64,000 bases of DNA from positions 310,001 through 374,000 of the forward strand of contig QPGO01000072.1 of NCBI GenBank assembly GCA_008632985.1, in the 5' to 3' direction. A program made the position numbers and the translations under genes. The DNA comes from Psammoneis japonica (Eukaryota). The notes beneath the pieces were generated by a model, which was given only the letters and a program-made list of their open reading frames with translations, did no database searches and was not told the origin of the DNA. This document shows positions 24,381 to 51,448 of this stretch, piece by piece (the first letter of the stretch is position 1; every line of letters begins with the position of its first letter).

Positions 24381-24439
24381 CAACATCAGGAAAAGACAAT
24401 TGTGAAAATGCTGCAGCATGAAAACGAATTTACATTGTG

Positions 24440-27591: not shown

Positions 27592-28080
27592 GCTCCTCCT
27601 CGCGTGCCTTGCGCTTTTTCTGAGCGTTGGCAAAGAACTCCTCGACCTTCGATCCGATGAGAGCATTGATGTCTTCCTCATTCCGAGGTTTTGTGTTGGG
27701 CTTGCTGCCTCCGTTGTTGGAATGTCCAGTCTTGACACGTTTCACGTGGTGCTTGAGCTGACGGCAATCCTCCGTGTGATGTCCACAGTTGGTCCCGTGT
27801 GGCATGCACGACTTCTGGGTGTTCCGTTGGGTCGTGATTGACGACTCAGGATTGTCCGTTCTACGTCCCCGCTTGCGTGGAACCTTGGCATGTTGGTCCT
27901 GGTTACCTTCGGCAAGCTCGACCTGCTCGATGCGCTCGCAGAACTGCACAAATTCGGCGACAGCATGCGCCAACGGGTCAAAATTCTGCAGCGTCATGAA
28001 CTTCTGCCATGCGCTCGGCACACTGCACTCGAACATGTCACACAGTTCGTCATTGGGTGATGGTGCCAGTGCTTCTCCTT
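27592..28080 (-). pseudogene. Gypsy gag C-terminal half
   Basis: PSAWQKFMTLQNFDP...FVQFCERIE and a CMPHG...HHTEDC knuckle-like motif. In frame with the segment left of the piggyBac insertion. Confidence 0.75.
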
Positions 28081-28917: not shown

Positions 28918-28921
28918 TTTG

Positions 28922-31900
28922 ATTGGCTGATCTGGCCACCACAATTTTGTCTCTCAAATGCATGCTGTGGTGGGTCCAGAGAATCTTCACAAGCCAGCTG
29001 ATTGTGCATGATGCCTGCATTGTCTCGTTGACTCTGACACACATCCCCACTGGAACACCAGCATTGAAGCCAGGTTGTTCTGTTGGATTTTGGAATGGGG
29101 TCATTGTCCTGCCACCTCAGAAGCATCTTTGACCACATGGAACCTGGATGTTTTGCACAAGTCCACCAATTCTGGAGTTTGCAGCTTTGGTCTTGTTTTG
29201 TTGTTTCTGATCTCTTGCATCAGAACATGAGCCCACCATCTGTGTGGCCTGCCAGCGTTCCTCCTCTTGCTTGGTGCCTGTTGTGTCTGTCATCAAAATC
29301 GGCCCCAGTGCTGTGTCTTCATTTTGCCCACAATTGCAGTTGCCACATGTTGCACTCACATGTTGAGCACATGTTTGTGATTGCATCTCCTCTTTTGACC
29401 ATTGCAATGGTCTTGCATCTGCTGTTTTTGCCACATCTGATGATTTGCAAAAAAGTTCTTTCACCTCATTGTGTTTTTGACAAAATGTTTTTTTTAAATC
29501 TTTCCACTCATCATCTGGGAGGAGCTTCCACAAGCATTCAATCTCAGATGGAGTTGGTGGTTCATCTGCATGGCCTGCACTTGCCTGTGAAAAATGATTG
29601 TGATCACAGCTCTGCGAGTTTTCAAACTCTTGGGACGGGACCACTTTTCCCTTTTTTCCTTTCTGTTCAACAAAATTTTGGCATGCTCCACCTGGCATTC
29701 AGTCTTGCAGACCTGCTCTCAGTGCACGATGGCACTCTGGTCATGCACAAGTTCACAGTGAAGCTCTCATCCCAAAAACTTGTTCTCACTCACAACGCCC
29801 CAGTTTTTTTCCTTTTTGCACTCAGCTTTCTTGTCTGCCTTCCAGCTCCATCCTGCCACAGCCACTGATGTTCTTGCCACAATTGAGCATGACAAAACTT
29901 CTCCTGCTGAGTGCTTCTTGCAGCTGGGCTCCAAGGATGAGCTTTCACTCAACCAAACAAAGCTTGTTCTCCATCAAAACACCAGTTCTGCCATTGCTGA
30001 TTTCATGTGTGGTCAATTTGTCCAGCTCCTCATGTTTCACAAAGGTTGCATCATTGCAACTGTGAAACCCAGCCCCCCTTTGTGCATGGCAGCAATGAAG
30101 TCAAGCACTTGTGCAGCTTTTCTGACACTGCTGGCACAGTTGTTTCCATGTCAGGAACTTGCCAACATTTCAAGAAACACTTTGTGTCCTTGGTGCCCCA
30201 AGCTGATGCAGTGATGTCTGGCTTGCCTCATGCCGAGACTCCTCCAGGTGATGTTGAGGGACCTCCACTTGCTGACAGTGCCAATGATCCAGCATCTCTT
30301 CAACACCTCAATTTGGGAATCCTGCCAGGGCTGAAAAATGACAACAAGTCATTGTTGCTCTCTCTCCATGGCCTTCCCTCTCCCTCCAGGTTGCTCCTGC
30401 CTCTTGGAAATCACTCCTGACAGTTGTTTCCAGTGCCAGAGATGTGGTGCTGGAAGGCTGTTGGTTGCATCCAACAGCATGTGCAGGTTTTGTTCTCTCA
30501 ATCAAGGAGGACCTTGTTTTGACCAAGCCACTGACAGCCTCCAAGTTGTCAATGATTTGATTGGCCTCAATGTTTGCACTTTTTGATGATGATTTTCAGG
30601 TGGTGGCGCCCTTTTTGGGCTGTTGCGCAAGTGTCCAATCCACCATTGGGACAGCCTCTGCTTTGACCTGGCAGTCTTTGGGAGCCATGGTTCAAGGCCC
30701 GACCACCAACATTGCAAATGGAGCTCAGGCAGGAGGAATTGTTGCCCCTCAAGGACCCATTACACTGTCAATGTCAGAGGAGCCTCTGAGATGAAGAAGG
30801 GCGAGGATCACAAGAAGAGGGCTGTTGACATCCAGTCTTGGCACTCTTTGTCCTTTTGCCACAAAAGGTGATGGGTTCAGATGCTGTCATTTTGGGTGCA
30901 CTCAAGCCAGTTTTTGTCAATGCTCTCCAACAATCAAGCAAGACTGAGACTGAGCTTGCTGCATCTGTGAGATTGCTGTCATGGCACTCAGCAGCAGGAG
31001 GAGATCAATGAATGTCTTTGTCCAAGTTTTTGCCTTTCATGCTGATGCTTGTGCAAATGAGGCTTTTGCTTGTGGCACCTGTTCCTTTTGTCTCCTGCCT
31101 TGCTTGGGTCATGACACACACGTGGCCAACATTGATGTTGTGAACTTCCTTGGTCCTTGTGTGGACAACACTGAGAATTGTTCCCAGAAGGTCAAAGAGG
31201 GCCAACAAATTCCTGAGCACTCTTGTCATGATGGACTCCAACAACACAACTGCTGAGTTGATCAAGAAGTCTGCTTTTTACAACATGGGTCAAGCTCATG
31301 ATTTCTCAGACATCATTTTGGCTCTTGGCAACTTCAGGCTCATCTTCAATGCCCTTGTTGAAAACTTTGACAATGAGGCTCTCTGGCAACAGCTTCTCCA
31401 TTGCTGCCATGTTGCTTTTGGCAAGAGTGGCAAGCAGCGGATTGCAAGCAATGGCAACACTTTGTAAAATTGCCGCTTTTTTGCTCAACAACATTCAAAA
31501 ATGTCATTGCACCTTTTCCCAACTCAGCAGCGACCCAGACTGGCATCTCCAAGCACTTGACAAACCAGTCAATTCAGGATTTGGAAACCAACATCAGTCG
31601 CCCCCCCCCCCCCATGCCCTGGAACCTTTGGAAGCAAGTGATTGCTCTTTCAGCTTGCTGCAGAGTCAAGCTCTGCCCTGAGTGCTGGCAAGCATTCAGT
31701 CAATTCTCCTCTGGCTGCAGTGTCTCCATCCAAAAAACCAACGCATCCCTTGTCAGCATCTGACATTGAATTGAGCAAGAAGATGGGGCTCCTGGTCATT
31801 TCTGGAAACCCTTGTCAGCCTCCTGTTGTCCCATTTTTGGCCAAGAAATGTGTTAATTTAAGCACTGAAGAGCATGTGTGCCCTCATTTTGTGATGTGTG

Positions 31901-34900
31901 AGTTCTGTTGCAGCTGCCCCAAGTGCAGCAAGCCCCACATTGCAAATTTGTGCAACCTTCCTCAGGCCAAACACATGTTGCTGATCAAATTTCTCAATGA
32001 TTCTGACAACCTTTCCTTTGCCAAGGGAAAAGGCCCCAGCAGTGCATCTTGAATCTGCTTGGTTTCATCTTGTGACAAACCAGTGAATCTGTTTTTCTGA
32101 ACATCATCTCTCACCTCCATTTTTTTGTTTCAGTGTTTGTCAACCTCATGCTTTGCCAGCTTGCATTGTTGACTTGGTTGCTGCAATTTTGGACAACAAA
32201 ATGGATGCAATCTGAGCTGCAGAAGCTGAGGCATGTGCTGAAGATGATGTTGTCTCCACTTTGACCAATGCAACCAGCCAAGGGTGTCAGAGTCCATTGG
32301 GTTGGTGCAACAAGATGTTCCTGATGCCACTCCAGTTTCCTCCAAAGAGATCAAGAAATTCTGTCCAGCATCATCTCTCTTGTGAGCTTGTTGGGTGCTG
32401 GTGCTCTTGCTCCCACCTCAATGATTGACAACTCTTTTAAGAAAGCTGAGTGAGAAAAGTTCATCAGAGCAAACTTTTCCAATCAAAGAGGGTCTCAGTT
32501 GGACCAACCTTTTGGCAATGACAATGTCAGTCAAAAGCTCACCTCTGAGGCTGCTTTTCCTCATGCTTTGCTGCCCCTTTGGAAGTCTGGCTTTTTGCAT
32601 GATGACACTGGCAAACAGAGTTTTCTCTTGTTTCCACTGGTTTTGTCAGCAGTTGGGATGACCTGTGTGTTGTGTCACACACCAGTTGCCTGGTGCCTCC
32701 ATGTTCATGGCAAGATTGACTTCAATGCCCTTCAAAGATGCCCTGGAGATCAGGAGAGTGAAGAAAACCTCAACAAGGATTGCACCCAAAAAATGGCATC
32801 TGCTCTTCTCCATTTTGATGGGGACATGGCATTGTCAGTGCAGTGGGTCAGAGGCCAATGCATGTTGCTGTGAACAGAAAGAAGGTTGACAAGATCATCT
32901 CATCATTTTTGGATGGCAAAGTGGACCCTGCTGTCATTTCAACTGTCCACCAAGATTGATCCAGGAAAACTCACAAGGTGATTGCAAAGGACTCCAAGCA
33001 TGGCTTTGTTCCAACCCCTTTGCATGATTGGCAAATCACTCCATTTGCATTGAATTGTCACTTGTTGCCTCAGAGTCTGGTTGATGTCAACAAATTGTTC
33101 AAGAGCCCTTCCTTGCCCAGTCTTGGATTTTGGCCACTTCAATCATCTGTGGCCATCAATGACTTTTTTGTCACTGGACGAGGTTGAGTCTCCTCAACTG
33201 ACATCACTGCTTGGATGGACTTTGCATTTTGGGTTTGCAGTGCACACATTTCACACCCAACACAGGACATCCCCACCCAACTGACAATGATGTGATGGGA
33301 GCACACCACATGATGAAATGCAGTCTGAGCTTGGCTGGCATGCACGCATCAGTCCAGTGTGGATTTGGAGTCACACAGACTGGGTGCAATTTTGGAGACA
33401 TGCCCAACCCATGCAACAGAAACCAAGGCATTAAAAAAGCAGGTGGCAGCATGCGGAGTGCACAAAAAATAAAAAAAAAAAGATGTGTGGCAAACATCAG
33501 AAAATCCACAACATCAAGGAGTTGCAAGAAAGTCAGCTGACAATGTTGTCAGAGATGATGAGACCAAAACAACTCCTGCATTGCCGCCAGTGCAAAGAAG
33601 AAGCAGTCATTGATGTTGAGCATTTGCATCACAGGCTTGTGCATGAAATTGGCCTGGAATCCAAAGGTGAGTCACATGTCACATTGTGCTTGTTCCACAT
33701 CGGTGCTCAAGTTGACCTTGATGCCATGCTTGCCATGTCTAGACAACTTTGAGACACATGTGAAGCATGTTCATTGCAAGACATTTGTGCGGCCACTGAC
33801 AACAATTGGGTCACTTTGCATGTTTTGAATTTCCCTTCATTCCAAGAAAATGTTGGTGCACAAAGCGCTGCTGGGATGACTGGAGAGAGCCATCAACGTT
33901 CCTCTTGCCAAGGCCAATCTCACAAAATGAAGTCCTGCCATGTGGTGATGACTTTCTGAGGAGTCATTTCTGTGCTGAACCAGAAAGTTTGTGACAAAAG
34001 AACCACATGAATTGCAAATTGTTGATTTTCCATCTGATCTGAGGTGGAATGGCGCGCACCACAGGCACGATGAACCTGTTCTTGTGGCAACAGAACAAGG
34101 CTGCAGAACACCAAACACAAAGAATTGCTGGAAGATTTCCAGCAAGTCTCAGACCCACCACTTGTGTCCTCAAAAATGCACTTGTCAACAAGGCAAAATC
34201 TGTTGAATCAACCCTCTGGCAGCAACCAAGTCATGCTCTCAAGTTCAGGCAGATGAATGCTCTCTCCAACAAGGTCACTGAATGTGATTTAGTTTGCCAT
34301 GTCCAGACAAGGTGCTGCAGAGCTCAACATTGTCAGACAGTTCCATGTCCTGCTTTGACATGAGTGGGACAAAATTGCTGCCACTGGTCTCTGACCACTC
34401 TGGGAGACAGCCCTGTTCTCAAGCTCTTGGAGCAGTGCAGGTCAGGAATTTGCACCCCAGGCAGTTCTTCTGCAGAGTCGCACAGGGAAGCTCCACCAAC
34501 AAGGCCAAGACAAATGCAAAGACAAAGCTTGCTGCCATCCTGGAAGCCACGCAGCTCACTGCAATGGACAGCCCTGAAAACCCATTGCAGCTTTTTGCGT
34601 GCAGCTCAACTGCTGCATGCATGATGATGCTGTTGGACTCCAAAAGTGCCACCATGCTCAGACATGTGGGTCACTCTTCCCAGTGACTGGATTGTTGACT
34701 GTGGGTGCCCGTGACCATGCCAAAAGTGATGACTCTGGCCAATGTCAAAAGTGCAAGTCCCGCAATGATTGGTGCCACAATTTTGTTTTTGTGCCAACAG
34801 ACAATGACATGGCAATCCAAGGCACATGACCACACAATGCCAGACAAACAGGAATGGGCACTGCTGTCACCTGCACATTGCTCAACTGCTGCACACCAAA

Positions 34901-36850
34901 ATGTTGGTGATCCCCCTCCACATCAAACATCACACCTTGCAACCGCTGCTCCATCAAAGGTGTTGGTGCTCCAGCTTCAAACACATGACAAATGGAACAT
35001 GACCACCATGGAGAGATTGATTGGTGACACCAGCGCACCAAAAGAGGTGCAATGAAAAAGAGCTGGACATCAATCCCCAGTCACCCGAATGGCAAAAACA
35101 GGTTTCGGCATTGCCCAAATCTGACAGAACACAGTTGTGAGTTGGCCCAACCGCAATCTATGCATGGCTTTTCAAAAGACCAAGCCACCTGCACCAAAAG
35201 GGCCCACCTCCCAGATGAGGGGCTGCAACAATCCAGAATTCAAGTGTGCAGCTCAGACAGGGGAAGCATTCTCAAGACTTGATGCAACCACAGTTCCAGC
35301 AGTGTTGTGATGCACACTTGTGCAAAAACCACATTTGCTTCCAATTCACAGTCAGAACCAAATTTGGGATCTTGCCAAGCACATGCACAAAAAGGAATCC
35401 TGAAACAAAGAGAAAGGTGCAGACTGCAAACCTTGGCAAAAACAGCAATGGCCCATCAAACATGGCATCTCTTCACCATGCAGCACCGTCACTCTGTGTG
35501 CCGCAGTGCCACAAATTGGGAGTGTGCGTGGGTCATCAAATGACATTTTTGATTCTTCTTGAGAAGGTGGCACACAGGTGATTGTTGGCAGCCTTGTGCC
35601 CATGGCAAATGAAGCAGGGGTCTGACATGCCACACAGCAACAATGCAGGCCACCACCAGGATGAGACGGATGATGCAACAAACTGAGGGCCATTGTGAGG
35701 TGTGCCCACCTGCAGCACAGTGCAGTGCAACAAGTGTGCACAATCAAACGGTTGATTTTTGAATTGGCATCTTGTGAATTTTTGTGTGCGTGCATGCTGT
35801 CACCCGTTTTTCAAATGTTCTGGTGTCCATTGGGGTGGTGGCTGGCCCCAACATCATCAGCAGCTTGCACAACATGCTTTCCACATCCCACCAGACATTG
35901 TGGGTGTCATGCAACCTTTTTTTGCCAGTGCTTGAATTTCCACCAGCTTCAGTGGTCACTTTGTTTGCTCAAGCACTCCTTTGCTCTCTCAACCTGGGGG
36001 TGCTGAATGATGGCGCCATGTGGTCATCCATGCAAAAGCATCATGTTGATGACAACGTGTGCACACCAATGTTCAGGAGTTCCTGGAGCATGCTGTTTGT
36101 GCATGTGGCTGCACCCGTGCTTCACATGATGCAAGGTTTTCTGCACAAGGAGGTTCCCAGTGCTTTGAGCCTTGAAATGCTCAATCTTTTTCTTTCTGCC
36201 TCTCTTTTCAGCAATTGTTTGGATGAAAGTGCAACACAAGGGCCCTTGTGGTTGGTGTGATGGACCACAAGTTGCATGAGCTGCTCCTGATTGTCCTTCA
36301 CAAGTGGCTCCAATGAATGAAGCACCCATTGTTGGTCATGTCTTCTTCACTTGGCTTGTTGGAGTTCCATGCACGCCGCTGCCCCCACACATGTTGCATT
36401 GGCTCTTTCTTCTCCAGAAAATTTTTGGGCTGTTTGATTGCCCATCACCACATTGCAAAGTGGATGCTTCTTGAGAGCAATTGTGTTGGAAGGAACAAAA
36501 GCCCAATTTGTCTGCTGTGTGAGTCTTGCGACTTTGGCGTTTGAGCCACTTCATTGGGCTCTTTTGGAAAAACCTGACTTGTCTGCTGTGTGAGTCTTGA
36601 GACTTTGGCATTAGAGCCACTTCATTGGGGGCTCTTGCAGCTGCTTGGTTCAGCATCTCAAATCAACTCCCAAGAACCCATGGGAGGCAAACAAGATTGG
36701 TGCCGTTGTCCCATGCAATCCTTGCTGTCAAGGTTTTGGCAATGCGCCAGTGGGCTCAGAGGTGGCGGTCACTGCCGCAAGTTTTGTTTTTGTTTCCTTG
36801 TGCTTTGGAGGAGTGATGAAGATTCTTGACACTGTGTCATGATGCACTCT
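28922..36850 (+). mobile_element. Decayed putative DIRS-like (tyrosine-recombinase) retrotransposon, copy A, right part
   Basis: Colinear with ~42260-49875. Fragments resemble a gag CCCH finger (CPHFVMCEFCCSCPKCSKPH) and RT (DNDVMGAH...AGMHAS...GCNFGD), with a possible recombinase remnant on the minus strand at ~35300-36300. Many frameshifts. Confidence 0.5.
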
Positions 36851-39025
36851 CTCTTGGATTTGTGGTTTCAATCATTGTCCTCAGGGGCATTGTTGCTTTT
36901 TTGTGAAGTCCACAGATGAAGAGCCTTTGGATCTGGAGCTGGTCAGGGTGCTGCTCCCTCTTGCTGCTCTGGAGAACCTGGTTGTCTGAGGTGGACAGAC
37001 AACATTGTCAGCTCAGGTTGGCAAAATTGCCAAACTGCTCATTCTGTTCAGGGGCAACAACTGCTTTGTGTCCCATCTGCACTCTGAATTTTTTTGTGGC
37101 CAATTGGGCTGAAATTCTTGGAGTGCCCATTGGGCAGGTGTCAACATGCTCTTGCCCATCTGATCCCAGGCAACCTGCCTCAGAAGCACCCTCCTTTTCT
37201 GAAGACTTCAACTTTTTCCCTTCTGAGTCAAGAGTTGCTGCAGCTGGACTCCTCTCAGCTGTTCTCCAACAAGCCCCCCGCCCCTGTGTGGACCCCCTGC
37301 TCAGGACAGCTCACGTGTGATGCATGCGCTGTTTTCAAATTCACTAAGATGTGAGATGGGGTGCAGGTGCTTGTGGAAAATCTTCTGGAGAATCATTGCA
37401 TGTTGCAAAGGGCTGCAGTGTTTTTTGCAAGCAGGTGCCCAGGTGGACTCTGTCTGCTGCTGTGTGCTGTGTGGGGGATGTGACCAATTTTTTGCACTGT
37501 TTGGTCATTTGTTGCAATTGTTGCTGTGACCATCAGTCAGACACTGAAGTGTGCAACATCTTTGTGGATGTCAAGACAAAGCTCCAACAACAACATGATG
37601 CTCCAAACTGTTGTGAGAGTTCTGGTGGTGAGACGGCTGCGTGATGAGTTCAGGGCGCTCATGGCCAAAAATGCTGTTCATGCAGCCAACAATGATGGCT
37701 TTGCCTGCATCATTGCCAGCTGGTGTCAAGCATGTTTGTTTTGTGTGTTGCCAATCTCCAAGAGTGGGTGCAGACAGCCGGTTGGTCCAATCCAGATCAA
37801 CCAGCACTGAAATTCAAGGGAGTCAAAGCCGCTGATTTTTGACATCTTTGCAGTGCTGACATTTTGACTGTCCCTGTTGAGTCCATTGAAAAGATGTGTG
37901 GGTGGTGTGTGGGCACACCCAGAAGAATGGCCAACATGGTGAAGAGAAACTCTTTGCTCTCAATCTTTGTGATGGTGGGCTTGACCACTTGATTTGCCAG
38001 GGGTGTTTGCACTCATCATGGATCACAGGACATGATGACTCCATTGTCTTCATGTGAACCTGCTGGTGGTGTTGTCAAGCTCATCACCTTGAAAAATGTT
38101 GAATCTGACACATGAGAAGTGGCCGCTGAGGTTTGCAAACTCCACCCCCAGCCAAGGACAAAAATCCATTGATCGGTGGTTGCCCCACCTGCCACTCTCT
38201 TCATGTTGGAACTTGTGCAATGCTCCACACCAAATGAACTTCAGCACAGAGTTCATTCAGCAGCTCTTGCACTGGTGGGTGACTGCCTTCATGGAACTCT
38301 CAGGAATTCTGCTCTCTTGGCAGATCACCAGTGCAGAGCTCTTGACCGCTCTGCGGCCATGCCGCACCTTCTTTGAATTTTGGAATTTTTCCAAATTCTA
38401 ACTCTTGTTGCCGTGCTTCTGTTTGTGCAGCATGTGTTCAATTCCTTTTGCCACTGCATGTTCGAACATTACAGCACAGTTGTGATCGGCTTTTCAGTTG
38501 GCCCTGCGGAGTTCAAATGCTGTTGTTTTGGCGGGAACAACGACATTGCTCTCACTCGAGTCAGCGACGAGGTCGATGGAGCTCTGCCGGCATTGCTTGT
38601 CGTTCGTTGGTCGCCGAATCATCTTCAATCTGGTTCCAGCCCATGGTTTGGTTCCAGCATGATTTGCTCTCTAGCCCAAGCATGTCAGCATTGCTGCAAA
38701 AAAAAAAAATTGAGCAAGGCTGGAGGCTCTAATTACAGCTGATGCGTGGAGCCAGAGATTGGCCCACATCGTGCTCATCATTTGTGATGGCGAGCCAGCC
38801 GATTGTGTAAATGGCACACAATGCCACAGATCCTACGGTGTTCATTGGCACGGCAAATTGTGATTTCTTGTTGATCGCGTTGAGATCTGAGAAGAGTTTC
38901 AGGTACGAAAAAAGAAAAGTCTTGCCGGCAAGCAATGAGAGCTCTGATTTTGGGTGGTTGACAGATGCACAGCGTGCACTCGAGCGAAACAATGAGACTC
39001 CAGCCTTTGCCGTTGTCGGTTCCTT

Positions 39026-40259
39026 TTAACTGACAAAGGCATGCTTCAACAGCTCCCTCGCTGATGGCCTCTTGTGAGGATCCTCCATGAGCATTTGCGA
39101 TGCCATGTCATGCGCCAACCACAAGCGCTCATTTTCTTTTGTCCTCGGTGGAACATCCTTGCATTCTCCTCATTCGCATGGCAGTCCACTGAGCATTTGG
39201 CCGGTGGCAAAAACATCAAAAGATGATGCGGTGGCATGCATCAAGTGCCACCCTGTTTTAGAATCCTCGGGGGCATCCAATGTGAGGTGTGGACTTCTCG
39301 TTGTCGCGTTTGGTGCGAAAAATCGAGATTGATCCCAGTCAAACAGGTGAGCAATGCCAGCCCCATTGTCACATCGCACGTTGGTCCAACGAATGTCACC
39401 ATCAATGACGTTTCGCGAATGTGCAAAATCGAGAGCTTGCAGCACGGATCGCATGAACGGTGCAATCTCCGAGAGACCTTCGGGGACCACCATGTGAGGA
39501 ACAAATGAAAGAATCTGTGCACCAATCGCCTTTTGTTTGAAGAGCCACTTGCGTTGCTCTTTAGATGCACCACTTCCATTCAAACCAACGTCAAGGATCT
39601 CATCATCCCACGTCCGAAAGGGGCTGCCCATCACCCAGAAGAAAAATGTGTCAGATTGCAAACACTGGTGCCTCTTGATTGTGTGATCAAACACATTACA
39701 CTCACTCACAACTTCGCAGCTCCACAACAGTTTGGGGACACCAGATGCACCAGGTTGCTCATTTAAAATTCGAAACGCCTTCATCTCGTTTGCTGTGTAA
39801 CGTGGAAAGTCCTGGGAGCCAATCTTCATCACACACGACTCGTCCCCTAGTTTCAGTGTCTTGACCTCAAAGCCCAAGTTTGCATGTTGTCCATTCCCCT
39901 TTGTTGCACAATCGCAGGGACTCCAGGTGAGTGAAAGCAAACGCAGAAGATTGAAAGGCAAGATGAAAACGCACAAGAACAGATGCCAGCTCAATGTCAT
40001 AAACCAGGTCAAGATGCAATTGATCGTTGGAGTTTCCGTCTGTTGTTGCAACATCATGCCTGTTTTCATCCATCTGGTCGCTCGGAGGACACTGGAATGC
40101 TGGAGCTAGAGCAAAATGCCAGAGTGCAATCAGCCAGAACGCAGTTGGCACAAAGACAAGGTGCGACCATTTGAAAACTCGGTGCTGCTGTTTGTTGGAC
40201 AATCGAGTTCGTCTCTTCATCGCCAACGTGTGGTTGAAATTGACACGGCTTGTCCTCAT
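39026..40259 (-). pseudogene. Kinase-like gene copy 2, hypermutated
   Basis: Colinear with copies 1 and 3 but with systematic TA->TG/CA changes, a destroyed intron-2 acceptor (TAG->TGG near 39629) and a premature TGA at 39170-39172. Confidence 0.85.
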
Positions 40260-40519
40260 GGTCGCTGCGAGACCAACAACAATGATTTTTGTACAGTGCA
40301 GTGTGATGCTGCACAGCACATGCCGCACAGAGCACCGTTCAGCAGACTTGGTTTTACACACTGAATGTTTTTATGTACATGCAACGGAAATTCGATTTTT
40401 CAACTCACAGATCAACCTTGTTTCTACATGTGTGTCAGTTTTCATGATTTCCGTTATCATCATTTTGGTTTTTCTTTACAGTGCCTCATGTTTTTTCCGA
40501 CATGCTCTTTTGCGCTCTC

Positions 40520-43500
40520 ACTTTTGATGTCAACAACAGTGGATGCATTTTTTAATTGGAGTTGCAACACAGCTGATGATTTTTGCCAATGTTGTTGAAA
40601 ATTTTGTGCCAACAACGCTGTTTGGAGGTTGGCACAAAACATTTCTGCACACATTCTGCAGCAGTGGTCTGCTTGCATGAAAGTCTCTCTGCAATTTGAT
40701 GTGAGTGCTGTGACATGGAGCCAGAATTGTTTCCAAAGAAAAATCCTGTGAACATCATGTGTCCCATGAAGACTTGAACACTGATGAAAAAATCTTTTGA
40801 ATGTTCGTGCTCCAACCGAACATGAAAGCTGGAGTGCACGAGTGTTTTCAATGAACAAACACCAGCGCACAAAGCTCACAAAAATTGTGCTCAAAAGGAA
40901 GTGTCATTTTGTGTGTCGCCTGGGGCTGGAACACACCTGAAACTTGTGCAATGTTTTGTTTTGGACAAGGCATTGAAAATTGTGTTGGAACACCGCTGCG
41001 GCAGCCTCACAACCTCCAGAAGACAAAAAGGGAAGCACAAGGAGGAACAGGTGGCACAGCATTGCACTCTGATTGGACAAGATGTGGTTGCATCAGCACA
41101 AGCAGAACTGTGCACAGAAATGCCATTCCTGCTTTTGTCTGCGTGGCAAGGGAGTGGTGGGGCAAGCTTTTGAGACAAAATCAAAGCTGACCTCAATTTT
41201 GATTTGACTCTGCATTTTTTTGCTGGCAACACTGCTGGCTCGCAATTAATTTTAATTGTCAATCAAAACATTGGGCACATCTTGAACTTGAAAATGTTTG
41301 TAGACAACACCCACACTCATGCTCATGACTCAGTGGTGTCCAACAATTTTTGACTGCTGCTTTCTTTTGATGAGCCATCAACTGGACTGCTTTAATTTTG
41401 TCAGAACCCAGCAGATGACCATCGTCATTTGCTTGACATTTTCTGTTCAGTTTGCAAGAATGTCAATTCACACCTTCAGCAATCCAGGCGGTGCTGCTTG
41501 CATTGACATGTGCTTTTCAACACACCCTCTCTGTGACACACATTGAAAATCTGGCTCTGTGATGTGACCAGTTTGAGGTGATGAAGGCTCATTGAGGCTG
41601 CACTTGCAACAACTCCAAACACCCTTGTTGGCCATTGTTTGCCTCCAAAAAGCAGTCCTGGGCTTCTTTGTGGCAGGACCAAAGAATTGACAAAGGGAGG
41701 GGTTCTTTTTTGAGTTGTTGAGTTTGTGCTCATGAAGCTGTGACACAATGTGCGTGCATTGTGAGAAATTGAAAATGATGGGAAAAAACAACATTGTCAG
41801 GGAGAAGTGCAAGATTCAAACTGTGCAAAACTTGGCACCTTTTCTGCATGTGTGACAAACATGTGCATTTTTGCACCAGGAAGAGATGCCATGTGCCCTC
41901 TCTGTGACATGTGCTGAAATTCCACATGCGCCCCCAGTGTGTGTCAATGTGAGCAGTCTGTGTGCCAAGCACAAGGAGAGGAGGATGCCTTGGGGTTGGC
42001 CATGCTCTTGGAGGAGTCACTGGGCAATGGTGACATGCAGCAGCAGGTGGATGGACAGATGTGTGGAGACAACAATGAGAGGCCACACCCCAGCTCTCCT
42101 CATTGTTCTTGGCAGACAAGCAGCAGCAATGGGGCTGGCTGTGGTGACCCAACATGGGACAACAACACTCAAAAATTCCTTTCTGTTGACTGGCAGCCAT
42201 GTTTTGTGCAGTTGCCCACACATTGGATGTGGCACCAATTGCATCTGTGGTTTGGCTTTGACTGGCTGATCTGGCCACCACAATTTTGTCTCTCAACCAC
42301 ACACTGTGCTGTGGATCCAGAGAGTCTCCACAAGCCAGCTGATTGTGCATTGTGCATGATGCCTGCATTGTCTCATTGACTCTGACACACATCCTCATTG
42401 GAGCACGGGCATTGCAGCCAGGTTGTTCTGTTGGTTTTTGGACTGGGGTGATTGTCCTGCCACCTCAGAAGCATCTTTGATCACATGGAACCTGGATTCA
42501 TTGCACAAGTCCACCAATTCTGGAGGCTGCAGCTTTGGTCTTGTCTCATTGTTTCTGATCTCTTGCATCAGAACACAAACCCAGCCTCCATCTGTGCAGC
42601 CTGCTTGCACTCCTCCTCTTGCTCTGTGCCTGTTGTGTCTGTCATCAAAATTGGCCCCAGCACTGTGTCTTCATTTTGCCCATGATTGCAGTTGCCACAT
42701 TTTGCACTCACATTGAGTGCATGTTTGTGATTGCATCTCCTCTTTTGATCATTGCAATGGTCTTGCTTCTGTTGTTTTTGCCACATCCAATGATTTGCAA
42801 AAAAAGGTCTTTCAGTGTTCAGAAGACACAACTCCTTTTTGCATTTTGAACAAAATGTTGTGCACATTTTTTGACATTGGTGTTTTGTGAGCATTTTTCC
42901 AATCTTTCCACTTGTCATCTGGGAGCTTCCACAAGTGTTCAACCTCAGATGGAATTGGGGGTGTGTCTGCATGGCTGCATTTGCCTGTGAAAAAATCGTG
43001 ATCACAGCTCTGTGAGTTTTCAAACTCTTGGGACGGGATCACTTTTCCCTTTTTTTCTTTCTGTTCATCAAAATTTTGGCCTGCTCCACCTGACACTCAG
43101 TCTTGCAGACCTGCTCTCAGTGCACGATGGCACTCTGGTCATGCACAAGTTCACAGCAAAGCTCTCATCCAAAAAACTTGTTCTCTCTCACAACACCCCA
43201 GTTTTGCCTTTTTGCACTCATCTTTCTTGTCTGCCTTCCAGTTCCATCCTGCCACAGCTGCTGATGTCCTTGCCACAATTGAGCATGACAAAACTTCTCC
43301 CACTGAGTGCTTCTTGCAGTTGGGCCCCAAGGCTGAGCGTTCACTCAACCAAACAAAGCTTGTTCTCCATCACAACACCAGTTCTGACATTGCCAATTTC
43401 ATGTGTGGTCAATTTGACCAGCTCCTCTTGTTTCACGAAAGTCACATCATTGCAGTTGTGAAACACAGCTCCCCTTTGTGCATGGCAGCAATGAAGTCAA

Positions 43501-46500
43501 GCACTTGTGCAGCTTCTCTGACATTGCCGGTGAAGTTGCTCCCATGTTGGGAACTTGCCAATGTTTTGAGGGACACTTTGTGTCCTTGGTGCCCCAAGCT
43601 GATGCAGTGATGTCTGGCTTGCCTCATGCTGAGACTCCTCCAGATGATGTTGAGGGACCTCCACTTGCTGACAGCGCCAATGATCCAGCATCTCTTCAAC
43701 ACCTCAATTTGGGAATCCTTCCAGGGCTGAAGAACAAGCAGTCATTGTTGCTCTCCCATGGCCTTTCCTCTCCCTCCAGGTTGCTCCTGTCCCTTGGAAT
43801 TCACTCCTGACAGTTGTCTCCAGTGCCAGACATGTTGTGGAAGGCAGTTGGTTGCATCCAACAGCATGTGCCAGTTTTGTTCTCTCAATCAAGGAGAACC
43901 TTGTTTTGACCAAGCCACCAACAGCCTGCAAGTTGTCAATGATTTCATCAGTCTCAACATTTGCAACTTTTTGATGATGATTTTCAGGTGGTGGCACCCT
44001 TTTTGGACAATCATGCAAGTGTCCAAACCATGGTCAGGACATCCTCTGCTTTGACCTGGCAGTTTTTGGGGGGGCATGGTTCAAGGCCCAACTGCCAATG
44101 ACATTGCAAATGGAGCTCAGACAGAAGGAGTTGTTGCCCCTCAAGGACCCACTGCACTGCCAACGTCAGAGCCCCTGAGATGAAAAAGGGTGAGGATCAC
44201 AAGAAGAGGGCCACTGACATCCATGTTCTTGGCACTCTTTGTCCTTTTGCCACACAAGGTGGCAGGTTCTGATGCTGTTGCTTTGGGTGCACTCAAGCCA
44301 GTTTTTGTCAATGCTCTCAAACAATCAAGCAAGACTGGGTGGGCTTGGCTGCCGCACTTGTGAGATTGCTGTCATGGCACTCAGCAGCAGCAGGAGGTCA
44401 ATGAATGTCTTTGATCAAGTTTTTGCCTTTCATGCTGCTTGTGCAAATGAGGCTTTTGTAGATGGCATCATCTGTTTCTTTTGTCCCTTGCCTTGCTGAC
44501 CAGCCTCCCAATGCTTGGGTCATGACACACATGTGGCCAACATGAACATTGTGAACTTCCTTGGTCCTTGTGTGGACAGCCACACTCAGAATTGTTCCCA
44601 GAAGGTCAAAGAGGGCCAACAGATTTCTGAGCACTCTGTCGTGATGGACTCCAACAATGCATTTGCTAAATCAATCAAGAGCTCTGCTCTTTACAACACG
44701 GGTCAAGCTCATGATTTCTCAGACATTGTTTTGGCTCTTGGCAAGTTCAGGCTCATCTTCAATGCTCTTGTTGATGACTTTGATGATGAGGCTCTCTGGC
44801 AACAGCTTCTCCATTGCTGCCATGTTGCTTTTGGCAAGAGTGGCAAGCAGCAGATTGCATGCAATGGCAACACTTGCAAAATTGCTGCCAATGTGCTCAA
44901 CAGCATTCAAAATGTCATTTGCACCTTCTCCCAACTTGGCAGCATCCCAGATTGCCATGAGACTGTCTGCAACTCACAGCACATCAGCACCCAGGCTCTG
45001 GACATCTCCAAGCACTTGACAAACCAGTCAATTCAGGATTTTGAAACCAACGTCAGTTGTGCCCCCCCCCCTTGGAACCTTTGGAAGCAAGTGCTTGCTC
45101 TTTCAGCTTGCTGTGGAGTCAAACTCTGCTTTGAGTGGCTGCTGGCAAGCATTCAGTCAATTCTCTTCTGGCTGCAGTGTCTCCATCCAAGAAAGCAAAG
45201 TCTCCCTTGTTGGCATCTAACCTTGAATTGAGCAAGAAGATGGGGCTCCTCCTGGTCATTTCTGGAAACCCTTGCTGGCCTTCTGTTGCCCCAGTTGTGG
45301 CCAAGAAATGTGTCAATTTGAGCACTGAAGAGCATGTGCACCCTCATTCAGTGATGTGTGAGTTCTGTTGCAGCCGTCCCAAGTGCAGCAAGCCCCACAT
45401 TGCAAATTTGTGCAACCTTCCTCAGGCCAAACACAGCTGGCTGCTGATCAAATTTGTCAATGGCTGATTTTGACAACCTGTCATTTGCCAAGGGAAAAGC
45501 CCCAGCAGTGCAGCTGCATGGTTTCATCTTGTGACAAACCAGCAAATCTGTTTTTCTGAATGTCATCTCTCACCTCCATTTTTGTTTCAGTTTTTGTCAA
45601 CCTTGTGCTTTGCAAGCTTGCATTGTTGACTTGGTTGCTGCAATTTTGGATGACAAAATGGATGTGATCTGAGCTGCAGAAGCTGAAGCATGTGCTGAAA
45701 ATGACGTTGTCCCCACTTTGACCAATGGAAACCAGCAGAGGGTGTCAAAGTCCATTGGGTTGGTGCAACAAGATGTTCCTGATGCCGCTCCAGTCTCCTC
45801 CAAAGAGATCAAGAAATTCTTTTCAGAGCCATCTCTCCTGTGAACTTGTTGGGGGCTGGTGCTCCTGCACCCACCTCAATGATTGACAACTTTTTTTAAG
45901 AAATCTGAATTAGAAAAGTTCATCAGAGCAAACCTTTCCAATCAAGGAGGGCCCCACTTGCACCAACCTTTTGGCAATGACAATGTCAGTCAAAAGCTCA
46001 CCTCTGTGGCTGCTTTTTCTCATGTTTTGCTGCCCCTTTGGAAGTCTGGCTTTTTGCATGATGACACTGGCAAACAGAGTTTTCTCTTGTTTCCACTGAT
46101 TTTGTCAGCAATTGGGATGACCTGTGTTGTGTTGCATTGCACTGGCTGCCTGGTGCCTCTGTGCTCTTCTTTAGGAGCATGGCAACATTGACTTCAACAC
46201 CCTTCAAGGATGCCCTGATGATTGGGAGAGCGAAGAAGACCTCAACAAGGATTGCACCCAAAAAACTGCATCTGCTCTTCTCCATTTTGATGAGGACATT
46301 GTCAGTGCAGCAGGTCAGAGGCCCGCATGTTGCTGTGCACAGAAAGAAAGTTGACAAGATCATCTCATCATTTTTGGATGGCAAAGTGGACCCTGCTGTC
46401 ATTTCAACTGTTTGTCAAGATTGATCCAGGAAAAACTCACAAGGTGCTTGCAAGGGACTCCAAGCATGGCTTCGTCCCAACCTTTGATTGGCAAATCACT

Positions 46501-49500
46501 CCTTTTGCATTGAATTGTCACTTTTTGCCTCAGAATCAGGTTGACATCAACAAATTGTTCAAGAGCCCTTGTCCAGGAGTCTTGGATTTTGGCCACTTTA
46601 ATCATCTGTGGCCATCAAAGGTTTTTTGTCACTGGAGGTTGAGTCTCCTCAACTGACACCACTGCTTGGATGGACTTTGTGTGTTGGGTTTACAATGCCC
46701 ACATTTCACACCCAACACAGGACATCCACCCAATTGACAATGATGTGATGGAAGCACACAGCATGATGAAATGCAATCTGAACTTGGCTGGCATGCATGC
46801 ATCAGTCCAGTGTGGATTTGGTGTCACACAGACTGGGCGCAATTTTGGAGACATGCCCAACCCATGCAACAGAGACCAGGACATTAAAAAAAATGGGTGA
46901 AAGTGCACCAAGTGCATGAAAAATAAAAAAACAGTGCACAGCAAACATCAGAAGATGCGCAACATCAAGGAGCTGTGAGAAAGTCAGCTGACAACATTGT
47001 CAGAGACAATGAGATCAAAACAACTCCTGCATTGCCAGTGCAACAAAGAAGCAGTCATTGATGTCAAACATTTGTGTCACACAGGCTTGTGCATGAAATT
47101 GGCCTGGAACCCAAAGGTGAGCCACATGCCACATCATGCTTTTTCCACATTGGTGCTCAAGTTGACCTTGATGCCACACTTGATGTGTCCAGACAACTTC
47201 AAGACACATGAAGCATGTTCATTGCAAGACATTTGTGCTGCCACTGATGACAATTGGGGTGCTTTTGCATGTTTTGAATTTCCCTTCATTCCAAGAAAAT
47301 GTGGGCGCACAAAGTGCACTGCTGGGATGACTGAAGAGAGCCATCAACATTTCTCCCACCAAGGCCAATCTCAGGAAATGAAGTCCTGGTGCCACATGTG
47401 GGGTGATGACTTTCTGAGGAGTTGTTTCTGTGCTGAGCTAGAATTTTTGATGAAAGAACCACATGAATTGTGGGTTGTTGATTTTCTGTCTGATCTGAGG
47501 TAGAATGGCATGCACCACAGGCACAACAAACCTGTCCTCTTGGTGACAGAACAAGCTGGCAGAACACCAAACACAAAGAATTGCCTTAAGATTTCCAGCA
47601 AGTCTCAGACCCACCACTCATGTCCTCAAAAATTCACTTGCCAACAAGGCAAAATTTGTTGAGTCAACCCTCTGGCAGCAACCAAGTCATGCTCTCTCAA
47701 GCTCAAGCAGCTGAGTGCTCTCTCTGGCAAGGTCAATGAATGTGAGTTAGTTTGCCGTGTGCAGACAAGGTGCCACAGAGCTCAACATTCTTGTCAGACA
47801 GTTCAATGCCCTGCTTTGACATGAGCAGAACACAGAATTGCTGCCACTGGTCTCTGACCACTCTGGGAGACAGTCCTGTTCTCAAGCTCTTGGAGCAGTG
47901 CAGGCTGGGAATTTGAGTGCCAGGCAGTTCTTCTGCAGAGTTGCACAGGGAAACTCCACCAATGAGGCCAAGACAAATGCAAAAACAAAGCTTGCTGTCA
48001 TCCCGACCATGCAGTTCATTGCAATGGACAGCCCAAAAAACCCATCGCACTAAAAGAGGTGCAATCAAAAAGAGCTGGACATCAACTTCCAGACACCCAC
48101 ATGGCACAAACAGGTTTCTGCATTGGCCATGTCTGATTGAGCACAGTTGTGAGTTGGCCTGACCACCACAATCCATGCATGGCTTTTTAAAAGACCAAGC
48201 CACCTGCACCAAAAGGGCTCACCTCCCAGATGAGGGGGGCTGCAATGATCCAGAATCCAAGTGTGCAGCACAGACGGGAAGCATTCACAAGACTGGATGC
48301 AACCACAGTCCTGGCAGTGTTGATGCACACTTGTGCAAAAACCAGGTTCACCTCCAATTCACAGTCAGAACCAAAGTTGGGATCTTGCCAAGCACACACA
48401 CACAAAGGAATCCTGAAATGAAGAGAAAGGTGTCGACTGCAAACCTTGGCAGAAACAGGCAGCAGCGGCCCACCAAACGTGGCATCTCTCCACCACGCAC
48501 TGTCACTCTGTGTGCCGCAGTGCCACAAAACAGTGTGCATGGGGGTCATCAAATGACATTTGAATCTTCTCAAGAAGGTGGCAACCACACAGGTGATTGG
48601 CAGCCTTGTGCCCATGGTGAACAAAATGGGGGTCTGACATGCCACACAGCCACAACAATGCAGGCTGCCAGGATGAGATGGGTGATGCAACAAACTGAGG
48701 GCCATTGCAAGGTGTGCCGACCTGCAGTGCAGTGCAGTGCAACAAGCGCACACAATTGAATGGTTGATTTCTAAATCAGAGCCAGCGAATTTTGTGTGCG
48801 TGCATGCAGCCATCCATCAAATGTTCTGGTGTCCATTGGGGTGGTGGTGGCTGGCCCCAATGTCATCAGCAGCTTGCACAATGTGCTTTCCACATCCAAC
48901 CAGACATTGTGGAGATCATGCAACCTTTTTTGCCAGTGCTTGAATTTCCACCAGCTTCAACAGCTTCAGTGGTTACTTTGTTTGCTCAAGCACTCCTGGA
49001 CTCTTTCAACCTGGGGGTGCTGAATGATGGTGTGTGGTCACCCACCATGCACAAGCACCACATCAATGACAACGTGCACACCAATGTTCAGGAGTTTTTG
49101 GAGCATGCTGTTTGTGCAAGTGGCTGCACATGTGCTTCATGTGATGCAAGGTTTTCTGCACAAGGAGTTTCCCAGTGCTTTGAGCCTTGTAAAGCTCAAT
49201 CTTCTTCTTTCTGCCTTTTTTCAGCAATTGTTTGGATGAAAGTGCAACACAAGGTTCATTGCGGTTGGCGCAATGGACCACAAGTTGCGTGAGCTGCTCT
49301 TGATCATCCTTCACAAGTGGCTCCAATTGCTGAAGCACCCATTGTTGGACATGTCTTCTTCACTTGGTTTGTTGGAGTTCCATGCATGCCGTTGCCCCCG
49401 TGCATGTTGTGTTGGCTCTTTCTTCTCTAGAAAATTTTCTGGGCAGATTTGATTGCCCATCACCACATTGCACAGTGGATGCTTCTTGAGCAACGAGGTT

Positions 49501-49875
49501 GGAAGAAACAAACATTGGACCAACTTTCTCAGAAGCTGTGTCATGGTGTGTTTTCCATCATTTTTTTGGGGGAAAAGCCCAATTTGTCTGCTGTGTGAGT
49601 CTTGAGACTTTGGTGTTGGAGCCACTTCATTGGGCTCTTGGCTGCTTGGTTCAGCATCTCAAATCAACTCCCAACCCATGGGAGGCAAACAAGATTGGCA
49701 CCATTGTCCCATGCGATCCTTGCTGTCAAGGTGTTGGTGATGCCAGTGGGCTCAGAGGTGACAGTCACTGCTGCAAGTTTTGTTTTTGGTTCCTTGTGCT
49801 TTGGAGGAGTGACGAAGCATGTGGAGGTTTGAACTCTTCTCTAGATTCTTGACACTGTGTCATGATGCACTCTCT
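40520..49875 (+). mobile_element. Decayed putative DIRS-like element, copy B (uninterrupted)
   Basis: Paralogous to 9130-10781 plus 28922-36850 and to 1-1168. RT-like remnants at ~46250-47250. TpA and CpG nearly absent. Boundaries approximate. Confidence 0.55.
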
Positions 49876-50287
49876 CTTGACAAGACGATTTATGCACCTC
49901 TGGGAATCATCTGGTTCCAGCCCATGATTTGGTACAATTTGCTCTCTAGCCAAAGCATTTCAGTATTACTGCATGTTGAGCAAGGCTGGAGGTTCTAATT
50001 ACAGCTGATGCATGGAGCTAGAGATTAGCCCACACAGTGCTCATTATTTATTTGTGATGGCGAGCCAGCCGATTTTGTAAATAGTACACAATGCCACAGA
50101 TCCTATTCATTGGCACGGCAAATTGTGATTTCTTGTCGATCGCGTTGAGATCTGAGAGAAGTTTCAGGTACGATAAAGGAAAGTCTCGCCGGTAAGTAAT
50201 GAAAACTCTGATTTTGGGCGGTTAACAGATGCACAGAGTGCACTCGAGCGAAAGAATGAGACTCCAGCCTTTGTCGTTATCGGTTCC

Positions 50288-51448
50288 TTAACTGACAAAG
50301 GCATGCTTCAACAACTCCCTCGCTGATGGCCTCTTATAAGGATCCTCCATGAGCATCTGAGATGCCATGTCATGCGCCAACCACAAGCGCTCATTTTCTT
50401 TTGTCCTCGGCGGAACATCCTTGCATTCTCCTCGTTCGCATAGCAGTCTACTGAGCATTTGGCCGGTGGCAAAAATATCAAAAGATGATACGGTAGCATG
50501 CATCAAGCGCCATCCTGTTTTAGAATCCTCGGGGGTATCCAATGTGAGGTGTGGACTTCTCGTTGTCGCGTTTGGTACGAAGATTCGAGATTGATCCCAG
50601 TCAAAGAGGTGAGCAATGCCAGTCCTATTATCATAGCGTACGTTGGTCCGACGAATGTCACCATTAATGACGTTTCGCGAATGTGCGAAATCGAGAGCTT
50701 GCAACACGGATCGCATAAACGGTGAAATCTCCGAGAGACCTTCGGGGACCACCATGTAAGGAATAAACGAGAGAATCTGTACACTGATCGCCTTTTGGTT
50801 GTAGAGCCACTTGCGTTGCTCTTTGGATACACCACTTCTATTCAAACCAACGTCGAGGATCTCATCATCCCACGTCCGAAAGGGATTGCCTATTACCCAG
50901 AAGAAAAATGTGTCAGATTGTAAATACTAATGCCTCTTAATTGTGTGATCAAACACATTGCACTCACTCATCACTTCGCAGCTCCACAAGAGTTTAGGGA
51001 TACTAGGTGTACTAGGTTGCTCATTTAAAATTCGAAACGCCTTCATCTCGTTTGCCGTGTAATAGAGAAAGTCCTGGGAGCCAATCTTCATCACATAAGA
51101 CTCGTCCCCTAGTTTCGGTATCTTGACTTCAAAGCCCAAATTTACATATCCATTCCCCAGAACAGATACTAGCTCAATGTCATAAACTAGGTCAAGATGC
51201 AATTGATCGTTGGAGTTTCCGTTTGTTGTTGTTGCTGCGACATCATGCCTGTTTTCATACATCTGCTCACTCGGAGGACACTGGAATGCTGGAACTAGAG
51301 CAAAATGCCAGAGTGCAATCAGCCAGAACGCAATCAGCACAAAGACAAGGTGCGACCATTTGAAAACTCGGTGCTGCTGTTTCTTGGACAATCGAGTTCG
51401 TCTCTTCATCGCCAACGTGTGGTTGAAATCAACACGGCTTGTCCTCAT
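50288..51448 (-). CDS. Kinase-like gene copy 3, intact, one intron (~50890-50967)
   Basis: Same motifs as copy 1. ELVSVLGNGYVNLG is encoded contiguously, so intron 1 is absent. Confidence 0.8.

Follow-up and report, generated by a model that had tools for sequence, protein, structure and literature searches.

This analysis deals with a 64,000-nucleotide stretch of DNA from the diatom Psammoneis japonica (assembly GCA_008632985.1, contig QPGO01000072.1, positions 310,001 to 374,000 of the forward strand; hereafter the window), which holds three kinase-like paralogues, all on the minus strand and designated c1, c2, and c3 in their order along the window. A dinucleotide-specific hypermutation turning TpA into TpG or CpA within repeat domains has very probably overrun c2, while c1 and c3 retained a normal TpA level. 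The differences among the copies indicate a process that is specific for TpA, strand-symmetric, site-independent, of the A:T-to-G:C type, limited to repeat domains, acting in place, and long-lasting. Replacement of TpA by TpG or CpA means that one or the other base of this palindromic step has undergone an A:T to G:C transition. The positions of the features concerned are given in Table 1.

Table 1. Features of the window, with positions counted from its first letter
Feature	Positions	Strand	Remarks
c1	4316..5746	(-)	intact gene, 358 codons; TpA level normal
c1 introns	intron 1 5461-5186 (276 nt); intron 2 4995-4918 (78 nt)	(-)
c2	39026..40259	(-)	TpA-hypermutated pseudogene; exactly from ATG at 40259 to TAA at 39026
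c2 exons	exon 1 40259-39975; exon 2 39898-39706; exon 3 39627-39026	(-)
c2 introns	intron 1 39974-39899 (76 nt); intron 2 39705-39628	(-)
Lost intron-2 acceptor of c2	39629-39628	(-)	GG; AG in c3 (TAG) and c1 (CAG)
Premature TGA of c2	39172-39170	(-)	codon 311, exon 3; CGA in c3; last 48 codons removed
Whole duplicated gene block of c2	38507..40417		TpA observed/expected 0.06-0.34 per 250 bp
c3	50288..51448	(-)	intact gene, 360 codons; TpA level normal
c3 introns	without intron 1 (junction 51158/51159); intron 2 50967-50890 (78 nt)	(-)
Shared 3' flank block A	1-1174 / 35416-36499 / 48429-49599		loci of c1 / c2 / c3
Shared 3' flank block B	3063-3757 / 36585-37257 / 49590-49880		loci of c1 / c2 / c3
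TpA-depleted repeat domain around c2	18401..49750		nearly continuous; dinucleotide scan
TA-free block 3' of c1	3201..3650		0 TpA; homologous to 36585-37257 and 49590-49880
TA-depleted block 5' of c1	6151..10700		10 TpA in 4550 bp
Border at c3	49751..49900		TpA from ~0 to normal, between the end of the transposon-like block (49880) and the start of the gene block (49903)
Inverted repeat, 3.6 kb, 96.6% identity	arms 18121-21740 and 23997-27602		piggyBac-like transposase open reading frame in each arm

The identity between c1 and c3 reaches 96.4% over 1256 bp, that between c2 and either of them 88-90%, and c1 and c3 are, on this comparison, sister copies in a tree of the form ((1,3),2). The duplication exceeds the gene itself, transposon-like blocks being found 3' of it in the same order at the three loci; the kinase-like gene was duplicated along with these transposon-derived flanks.

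The substitution signature of c2 was established on a three-way alignment (A1), in which columns 215-2070 were counted, provided that a base is present in all three copies. Besides 1371 identical columns and 2 in which all three copies differ, this alignment holds 104 singletons in c2, 42 in c1, and 25 in c3. At 72 of the 104 c2 singletons, T or A in c1/c3 is opposed to C or G in c2, the reverse being found at 21 sites (9 of these G/C to A/T transitions lying at CpG), and the remaining 11 are transversions. As many as 53 of the 72 sites are TpA in c1 and c3 and CpA or TpG in c2. Looked at from the 51 TpA common to c1 and c3, c2 has kept 11 and shows CA at 21, TG at 18, and TT at 1, which amounts to a loss of 78% of the TpA against only 14% of the CpG (57/66 CpG retained). 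More precisely, transitions are observed in c2 at 38 of 100 A/T positions lying in TpA versus 21 of 625 elsewhere (odds ratio 17.6, Fisher p = 1e-21), and the TpA/ApT ratio falls to 0.14 in c2 and to 0.00-0.08 in its flanks. The seven plus-strand changes quoted in a preliminary description of this DNA were all recovered in c2 against c1 and c3, and the bias towards one context that it had put forward, as opposed to substitutions spread over all contexts alike, is borne out by the odds ratio. No strand-coordinated clusters were found among the TG/CA outcomes in c2 (18 runs versus 20.4 ± 3.0 expected), and neither a wider motif nor a preference at the -1/+1 positions was found between mutated and kept TpA (39 versus 11 sites). 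Once polarised, the changes in c2 are thus seen in the alignment to be mostly A:T to G:C transitions concentrated at TpA, with TpG and CpA produced about equally.

Regarding the direction of change, the preliminary description had relied on the agreement between c1 and c3. Because these are sister copies, their agreement alone is not polarising and this argument falls; the direction that it had proposed, with TpG or CpA arising from TpA along the c2 lineage, is nevertheless upheld by three independent lines of comparison, namely outgroups, composition, and transposon proteins. In the outgroup check, 25 homologues were considered at the 36 amino-acid positions with a residue in c2 unlike that shared by c1 and c3: they favour the c1/c3 state at 22 and the c2 state at 4, another 9 give no information, and outgroups are too scarce at 1, so that the state of c2, which an outgroup might have revealed as ancestral, is not so overall. 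The derived residues of c2 include three former tyrosines, replaced by C in the YV.K strand and in NVRYD and by H in DPY.RP, as well as I to V (IPKL), N to S (NPF), V to A (TVS), and, preceding the catalytic D, N to D. Replacements of these classes (Tyr by Cys or His, Ile by Val, Asn by Asp or Ser, Val by Ala) are those expected from a loss of TA. In terms of composition, the observed-to-expected ratio (o/e) of TpA in c1 and c3 (0.55-0.6) matches the 0.61 found for the adjacent gene region of 13 kb, as compared with 0.00-0.05 in the transposon DNA around c2. Finally, two piggyBac-like transposase open reading frames (ORFs; 574 and 564 amino acids) and a gypsy RNase H-integrase ORF (571 amino acids), all recognised by Pfam, contain 0 Tyr together with 4-6% Cys and 4-6% His, host ORFs having 2-5% Tyr; only TA loss can explain such tyrosine-free transposase and integrase frames.

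The domain in which c2 lies displays, over long stretches, a TpA o/e of 0.03-0.08, a CpG o/e of 0.08-0.7, and a CA/TG o/e of 1.7-1.9. TpA o/e is 0.00-0.05 across 28-38 kb and 42-50 kb, compared to 0.61 across 49.8-62.75 kb. In the DNA around c2, with CpG o/e at 0.08-0.3 and CA/TG at 1.8-1.9, only the TA, CG, CA, and TG dinucleotides are abnormal. The borders of the domains could be resolved to within 250 bp, TA density jumping at about 49.8 kb next to c3, and c1 forms a 2.4-kb island of normal TpA (3701-6100) flanked by TA-free or TA-depleted blocks. In c1 and c3, TpA is also retained in intron 2 and in the 3' flank; the sparing of these copies therefore reflects a lack of mutation rather than site-by-site selection. 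The statement of the preliminary description that two paralogues were spared accordingly holds, c1 and c3 being intact and normal in TpA, although in a relative sense, as detailed below. Repeat-rich, presumably silent DNA is the target of the process, in domains with sharp borders, and c2 came to lie within a TA-erased domain of 31 kb, where it was overrun.

Within this domain, c2 is the least depleted part: the losses of 78% of TpA and 14% of CpG compare with about 95% and 85%, respectively, in the flanks, which indicates that TpA loss is faster than, and separable from, CpG decay. In the same line, most CpG is retained throughout the gene block of c2 (o/e 0.46-1.05), in which 15 TpA, 11 of them ancestral, are still present. 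c2 was probably engulfed later than the neighbouring DNA. A second, slower process, the decay of CpG to TpG/CpA, is at work in the same domains, in agreement with CG methylation of diatom transposons. The flanking domain contains gypsy and piggyBac sequences, c2 itself being a member of a cellular diatom kinase family, and the hypermutation of c2 would thus represent a spill-over onto a non-foreign gene.

The process acts on DNA and not by way of spliced mRNA, two proposals of the preliminary description that withstood the comparison of copies. Both introns are retained in c2 together with 3' flank blocks common with c1 and c3, and for this reason c2 is not a retrocopy of edited RNA. TG and CA outcomes are balanced (18:21) and unclustered, DNA outside the exons is affected, and transposons have diverged in place. 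The commonest adjacent double mismatch between repeat copies is CA versus TG: 87 such doubles were counted in the 5.6-kb pair 28902-34589 / 42241-48049, in which other types are each found 7 times at most, 25 in the pair 9162-10719 / 40560-42132, and 23, 20, and 8 among the three copies of the kinase flank. Each of these doubles is one palindromic step (TA or CG) resolved independently per copy. Between the arms of the inverted repeat, 98 of the 106 mismatches are transitions, and 20 CA/TG doubles, 13 sites with TA versus TG/CA, and 38 with CG versus TG/CA were recorded. Taken together, the comparisons between copies indicate that the process kept acting in place after the duplications. The centre of the inverted repeat is AT-rich and contains two runs of N (21741-22432 and 23478-23718); the structure could represent a foldback element or a palindrome introduced by assembly, but is not a trivial artefact, since its arms have diverged.

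As regards the state of c2, the acceptor of intron 2 appears in the alignment as the preliminary description had reported it, TGG in place of the TAG of c3, and, by this comparison, its loss is a TpA-to-TpG change. The next AG downstream is found in a CAG 4 nt further on, whose use would shift the frame, as read from the sequence. c2 has the longest open frame of the three copies because TpA editing removes TAA and TAG and cannot create stops. The c2-specific changes are distributed over the codon positions as 23:18:23, compared to 14:11:27 for the differences between c1 and c3 (ratio of nonsynonymous to synonymous substitution rates, dN/dS, 0.38), and TpA was lost at 26/32 sites in exons and 14/19 outside them, introns and 3' flank being equally affected. 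This even spread over codon positions and the equal loss in and outside exons imply that c2 evolves without constraint. On the evidence of the lost acceptor, one premature TGA, and 22 derived residues, c2 is thus a disabled pseudogene, and it is in this sense of disabled that the word killed, used for it in the preliminary description, holds, the TGA being derived from CpG. c1 and c3 are, as judged from their intact ORFs, the dN/dS of 0.38, and a spliced transcript-like contig, functional and under purifying selection.

The reality of the sequence was considered with the help of two sequencing runs. Contigs from a DNA run (X1) cover c2 at a depth of about 59, similar to that of the unique 51.6-54 kb stretch (56-58), and differ from c2 at 2-3 positions, near contig ends; the TA-free flanks are covered as well. 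The single-copy depth, and the transversions, indels, and CA/TG doubles between copies, argue that the c2 sequence is real and against miscalled modified bases. The X1 contigs also differ from the window by adjacent TG/CA doubles at 36817/36818, 43259/43260, 44099/44100, and 45929/45930, a footprint identical to that between repeat copies; these differences could come from other copies or from a second haplotype. A second run (X2), recorded as "DNA?", behaves like complementary DNA (cDNA): over window positions 49823-54000, its contigs cover genes only and show three GT..AG joints, corresponding to intron 2 of the kinase gene and to two introns of an ABC transporter (52381/52480 and 53464/53547). 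At 97% likeness, X2 leaves c2 uncovered, save for a trace (mean 0.68) in the bin 40207-40807, an observation that has no bearing on the expression of c2. Contigs of X2 lying over c3 differ from c3 and from c1 at 16 and 19, 6 and 6, and 2 and 3 positions, respectively, and the transcribed copy is not told apart by them.

Several points weigh against the proposed hypermutation of c2 by TpA loss, and should be considered together. As mentioned, 21 of the c2-specific transitions go from G/C to A/T, and 19 of the 72 T/A-to-C/G changes fall outside TpA. The outgroups side with c2 at 4 of the 36 polarised residues, one of them being the H of VPHM, where c1 and c3 have Y. The two other copies have themselves lost some TpA, about 9 in c1 and about 4 in c3, to CA or TG and often with the product opposite to that in c2. 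Besides, the premature stop of c2 is a CpG-to-TpG change (CGA to TGA) and not a TpA change, and c2 may have been silenced before hypermutation or destroyed by it. With respect to the runs, X1 is perhaps the assembly's own data, in which case it would provide a consistency check rather than independent proof.

A TpA hypermutation has recently been reported in the chlorarachniophyte Bigelowiella natans, where it affects integrated viral DNA (Mettrop et al., bioRxiv 10.64898/2026.01.13.699255). According to the accessible part of this preprint, 231 of the 302 new mutations in mutation-accumulation lines fell in two integrated viral regions, 230 of these 231 were A-to-G or T-to-C, all at TpA, the rate was about 1000-fold over background in real time, the genome contains 124 TpA-depleted clusters enriched in CpA and TpG, and an ADAT2 homologue is proposed as the editor (10.64898/2026.01.13.699255). 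As far as that part goes, the likeness is considerable, with A:T to G:C changes at TpA that yield TpG and CpA on DNA in place, and a confinement to particular regions, represented here by 18.4-49.75 kb as opposed to the normal 49.8-62.75 kb. Differences are also apparent. B. natans is a rhizarian whereas the present organism is a diatom, i.e., a stramenopile; a Rho of 0.45 is given there for an insert of a nucleocytoplasmic large DNA virus (NCLDV), while TpA o/e falls here to 0.00-0.05 across tens of kb, a near-total erasure; the targets described there are viral inserts, and here retrotransposons, DNA transposons, and one paralogue of a cellular gene. In addition, CpG decay accompanies TpA loss here and is not mentioned for B. 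natans in the accessible text, and the mutations observed in real time in that organism are here read from the sequence of one sample.

Diatom transposons are described as the main targets of DNMT5a-dependent CG methylation (PMC9998398). The resulting decay by deamination of 5-methylcytosine (5mC) is in line with the CpG o/e of 0.08-0.3 and the gain of TpG/CpA in the transposon domains of the window, but it would account for the CpG part only: in the light of the 78% of TpA and 14% of CpG lost by c2, the TpA process is separate and faster.

Four other explanations have to be weighed against TpA loss by hypermutation in c2. The same differences would be obtained if a classical process of the repeat-induced point mutation (RIP) type had changed CpA to TpA in the ancestor of c1 and c3, c2 keeping the ancestral TG/CA. 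CpA to TpA is indeed the textbook RIP change, the 104 differences are unpolarised on the ((1,3),2) tree alone, and the 4 outgroup-polarised residues in favour of c2 as well as its longest open frame would agree with such a history. RIP, as known from Neurospora and other ascomycetes, also resembles the present pattern by its dinucleotide-specific transitions in genomic repeats, which inactivate transposons and occasionally duplicated host genes. However, it changes C to T at CpA and creates TpA, the opposite of the destruction of TpA observed here; it lowers G+C, which is here maintained at about 0.48; and it mutates both duplicates, whereas the most similar pair (c1/c3, 96%) is the one spared. 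The outgroups, moreover, stand 22 versus 4 for c1/c3, and these two copies are intact, spliced, and under purifying selection, and match the neighbouring single-copy genes in TpA o/e. That c2 has a long frame is a simple consequence of the absence of TAA and TAG, and the surrounding transposons are TA-free rather than TA-rich, with proteins devoid of Tyr. RIP on the c1/c3 lineage, which had been the first expectation and was ruled out by the dinucleotide scan and the outgroup test, is consequently held to be highly improbable and, as far as the comparisons go, refuted for practical purposes. A change at the RNA level, by ADAR-like A-to-I hyperediting of double-stranded RNA followed by reverse transcription and reinsertion, appears no more credible. 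ADAR favours a U preceding the edited A and animals are known to carry hyperedited retroelements, a subject also taken up in the B. natans preprint, and long terminal repeat (LTR) retrotransposons are among the depleted sequences; in a broader sense, the ADAR and APOBEC enzymes of animals provide a likeness as deaminase-driven hypermutation against selfish nucleic acids. Nevertheless, these enzymes act on RNA or reverse-transcription intermediates, in strand-asymmetric clusters and broader contexts, while here symmetric double-stranded DNA is changed at TpA alone, without wider context and with 18 TG versus 21 CA as outcomes. c2 is besides a segmental copy with both introns and 3' flank blocks in the order of c1 and c3, the borders match junctions between sequence blocks, and a piggyBac-like DNA transposon and the arms of the inverted repeat have diverged in place alike.

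That TG/CA would be a sequencing or assembly artefact, for instance modified bases miscalled in silent chromatin, is likewise very improbable. In its favour, TA and CG are palindromic steps of the kind marked by DNA methyltransferases, some long-read basecallers miscall modified motifs systematically, and the window includes a large palindrome that looks suspicious, besides its two runs of N. Against it, contigs of the DNA run, the platform of which is not recorded, reproduce c2 at single-copy depth together with the TA-free flanks; CA/TG doubles, transversions, and indels between copies are not producible by miscalls; and Cys or His stands at the places of Tyr codons in transposon proteins, consistently across both arms of the inverted repeat. 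More weight, although it still appears unlikely, can be given to a signature that is real but arises without a dedicated deaminase, either from a mispairing modified base at TpA or from biased repair or gene conversion in heterochromatin, and that has no defence function. Oxidised thymine and methylated adenine would be candidates for the modified base, no enzyme was identified in the window, the signature coincides with domains of CpG decay, a methylation footprint, and its strand symmetry and site independence are what a bias in replication or repair would produce. Yet TpA decays 5-10x faster than CpG, both in c2 and in the inverted repeat, and is therefore not a by-product of 5mC, and to our knowledge no eukaryotic DNA modification is TpA-specific. 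Furthermore, according to the preprint, the process became active in a subset of the B. natans lines only, suggesting that it is regulated.

Should the loss of TpA be enzymatic, its chemistry would be the deamination of adenine after T to hypoxanthine, which is read as G, and adenine deamination in silent chromatin is probably the mechanism. TadA/ADAT2-type deaminases edit A34 after U33 in tRNA, which constitutes a natural context preceded by T/U. The tRNA adenosine deaminases TadA and ADAT2-ADAT3, as well as the base editors derived from TadA, share with the present signature an edited A located after T/U and read as G, and silent chromatin would be the place to which an enzyme of the TadA/ADAT2 kind is recruited. 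Nonetheless, tRNA loops are the natural substrates of these deaminases, targeting to a chromatin domain is left unexplained by them, and the enzyme is here hypothetical. A DNA-editing activity of amphioxus and trypanosome ADAT2 is cited in the accessible part of the B. natans preprint (10.64898/2026.01.13.699255). The active or silent state of neighbouring genes, in terms of chromatin or transcription, would set the borders. The wider proposal, according to which diatoms possess a dedicated, chromatin-targeted defence that deaminates adenine at TpA and drives transposons TA-free, with borders set by gene activity, is tentative and at present somewhat more doubtful than probable. If true, silenced transposons would lose TAA/TAG stops, Tyr codons, TATA-like motifs, and TA/TTAA target sites, TpA editing would be, with B. 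natans, an old counterpart of fungal RIP spread over stramenopiles, alveolates, and Rhizaria (SAR), and the three kinase copies would offer a ready natural experiment on gene protection.

Erasing one dinucleotide across tens of kb is very rare, the 2026 preprint on B. natans being the sole description found. No diatom report of TpA hypermutation was found in literature searches, out of whose reach lay many subscription papers and bioRxiv supplements. No relatives of the piggyBac ORF were found in metagenomes nor of the gypsy ORF in viral contigs, and a scan of public collections with the kinase alignment yielded 27 weak, mostly high-G+C, unrelated loci, the lowest 2-kb TpA o/e among them being 0.10, at a locus of 74% G+C. 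The same signature as in the chlorarachniophyte, far more advanced, is thus encountered in a diatom, i.e., in a second major marine-algal lineage, which speaks for a widespread system of genome defence or of chromatin-linked editing. The window brings a built-in control, with three paralogues of the same sequence and the same transposon neighbours, one overrun and two protected, and this set permits tests of transcription, methylation, and histone marks as border setters. In practical terms, TA-free DNA lacks TAA and TAG, so that long false ORFs arise, dead genes look open, and gene finders overcall, and CA-versus-TG double differences distort the dating of repeats by identity.

The gene concerned is predicted to combine an N-terminal membrane anchor with a divergent protein-kinase domain, in a diatom family: among the Atlas clusters, the one closest to it is a kinase-domain family with mainly diatoms (Bacillariophyta) as known members. 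A word-indexed protein search with c2 as the query gave no match; an exhaustive HMMER search returned 38 kinase homologues, of which the top ones reach 37-40% identity and none exceeds 40%. In an alignment with nine homologues (A2), no variation is seen at K25, E38, D168, and N173, and hardly any at D187, and, by our own reading of the motifs, these residues would form the catalytic set, including the metal-binding Asp. With Pfam Pkinase (PF00069), c3 (40.2 bits) and c1 (38.2 bits, exon-3 ORF) lie above the gathering cut-off of 31.7 bits, and c2 (22.6 bits) below it. Intron 2 is real, as seen both in the homologue alignment and in X2: the stretch VSECNVFDHTIKRHQCLQSDTFFFWVMG is missing from the homologues, which identifies it as an intron, and the spliced X2 contig omits exactly 78 nt (50889/50890-50966/50967), CT..AC on the plus strand. 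The in-frame TAG of c1 and c3 was at one time read as a killing stop, a candidate that was rejected, this TAG lying within intron 2. Intron 1, of 276 nt in c1 (5186-5461) and 76 nt in c2 (39899-39974), is absent from c3 exactly at the exon borders (GTTCTG/GGGAATGG, window 51150-51163), a precise loss although intron 2 and the genomic 3' flank are retained. Homology between c3 and c1 stops about 6 bp upstream of the ATG (51448-51454 versus 5746-5752), the upstream sequence of c3 being different, and c1 and c2 have about 160-200 bp of upstream sequence in common.

Around the three loci, a 1.25-kb TA-free and CpG-poor insertion (37258-38506) is found at the c2 locus only, where it separates the gene block from the shared flank block and lies some 520 bp 3' of the stop codon of c2. 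At the c1 locus, the TA-free flank is interrupted by a 2.1-kb island of normal TpA and CpG (1051-3150) with no equivalent at the c2 and c3 loci; it contains 213-nt inverted repeats at 1183-1395 and 1470-1682 and is probably a younger insertion, not yet or never to be hypermutated. The gypsy-type element on the minus strand at 11249-18232 is a mosaic, its protease-reverse transcriptase part (16951-18350) having a TpA o/e of 0.87 and 10 Tyr, and its RNase H-integrase part a TpA o/e of about 0.29 and 0 Tyr. Long frames without a family are present on both strands in TA-free DNA (e.g., 6170-7177, 29068-29865, 41733-42464, and 39170-40105). The plus-strand ORF at 14407-16482, of 692 codons and without a Pfam match, includes an array of about 1 kb with a 42-nt period (15200-16171). 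Finally, an HMG-box ORF at 61161-61901 has relatives that are 80-86% identical, those named being from the diatoms Thalassiothrix antarctica, Seminavis, Nitzschia, Cylindrotheca, and Epithemia.

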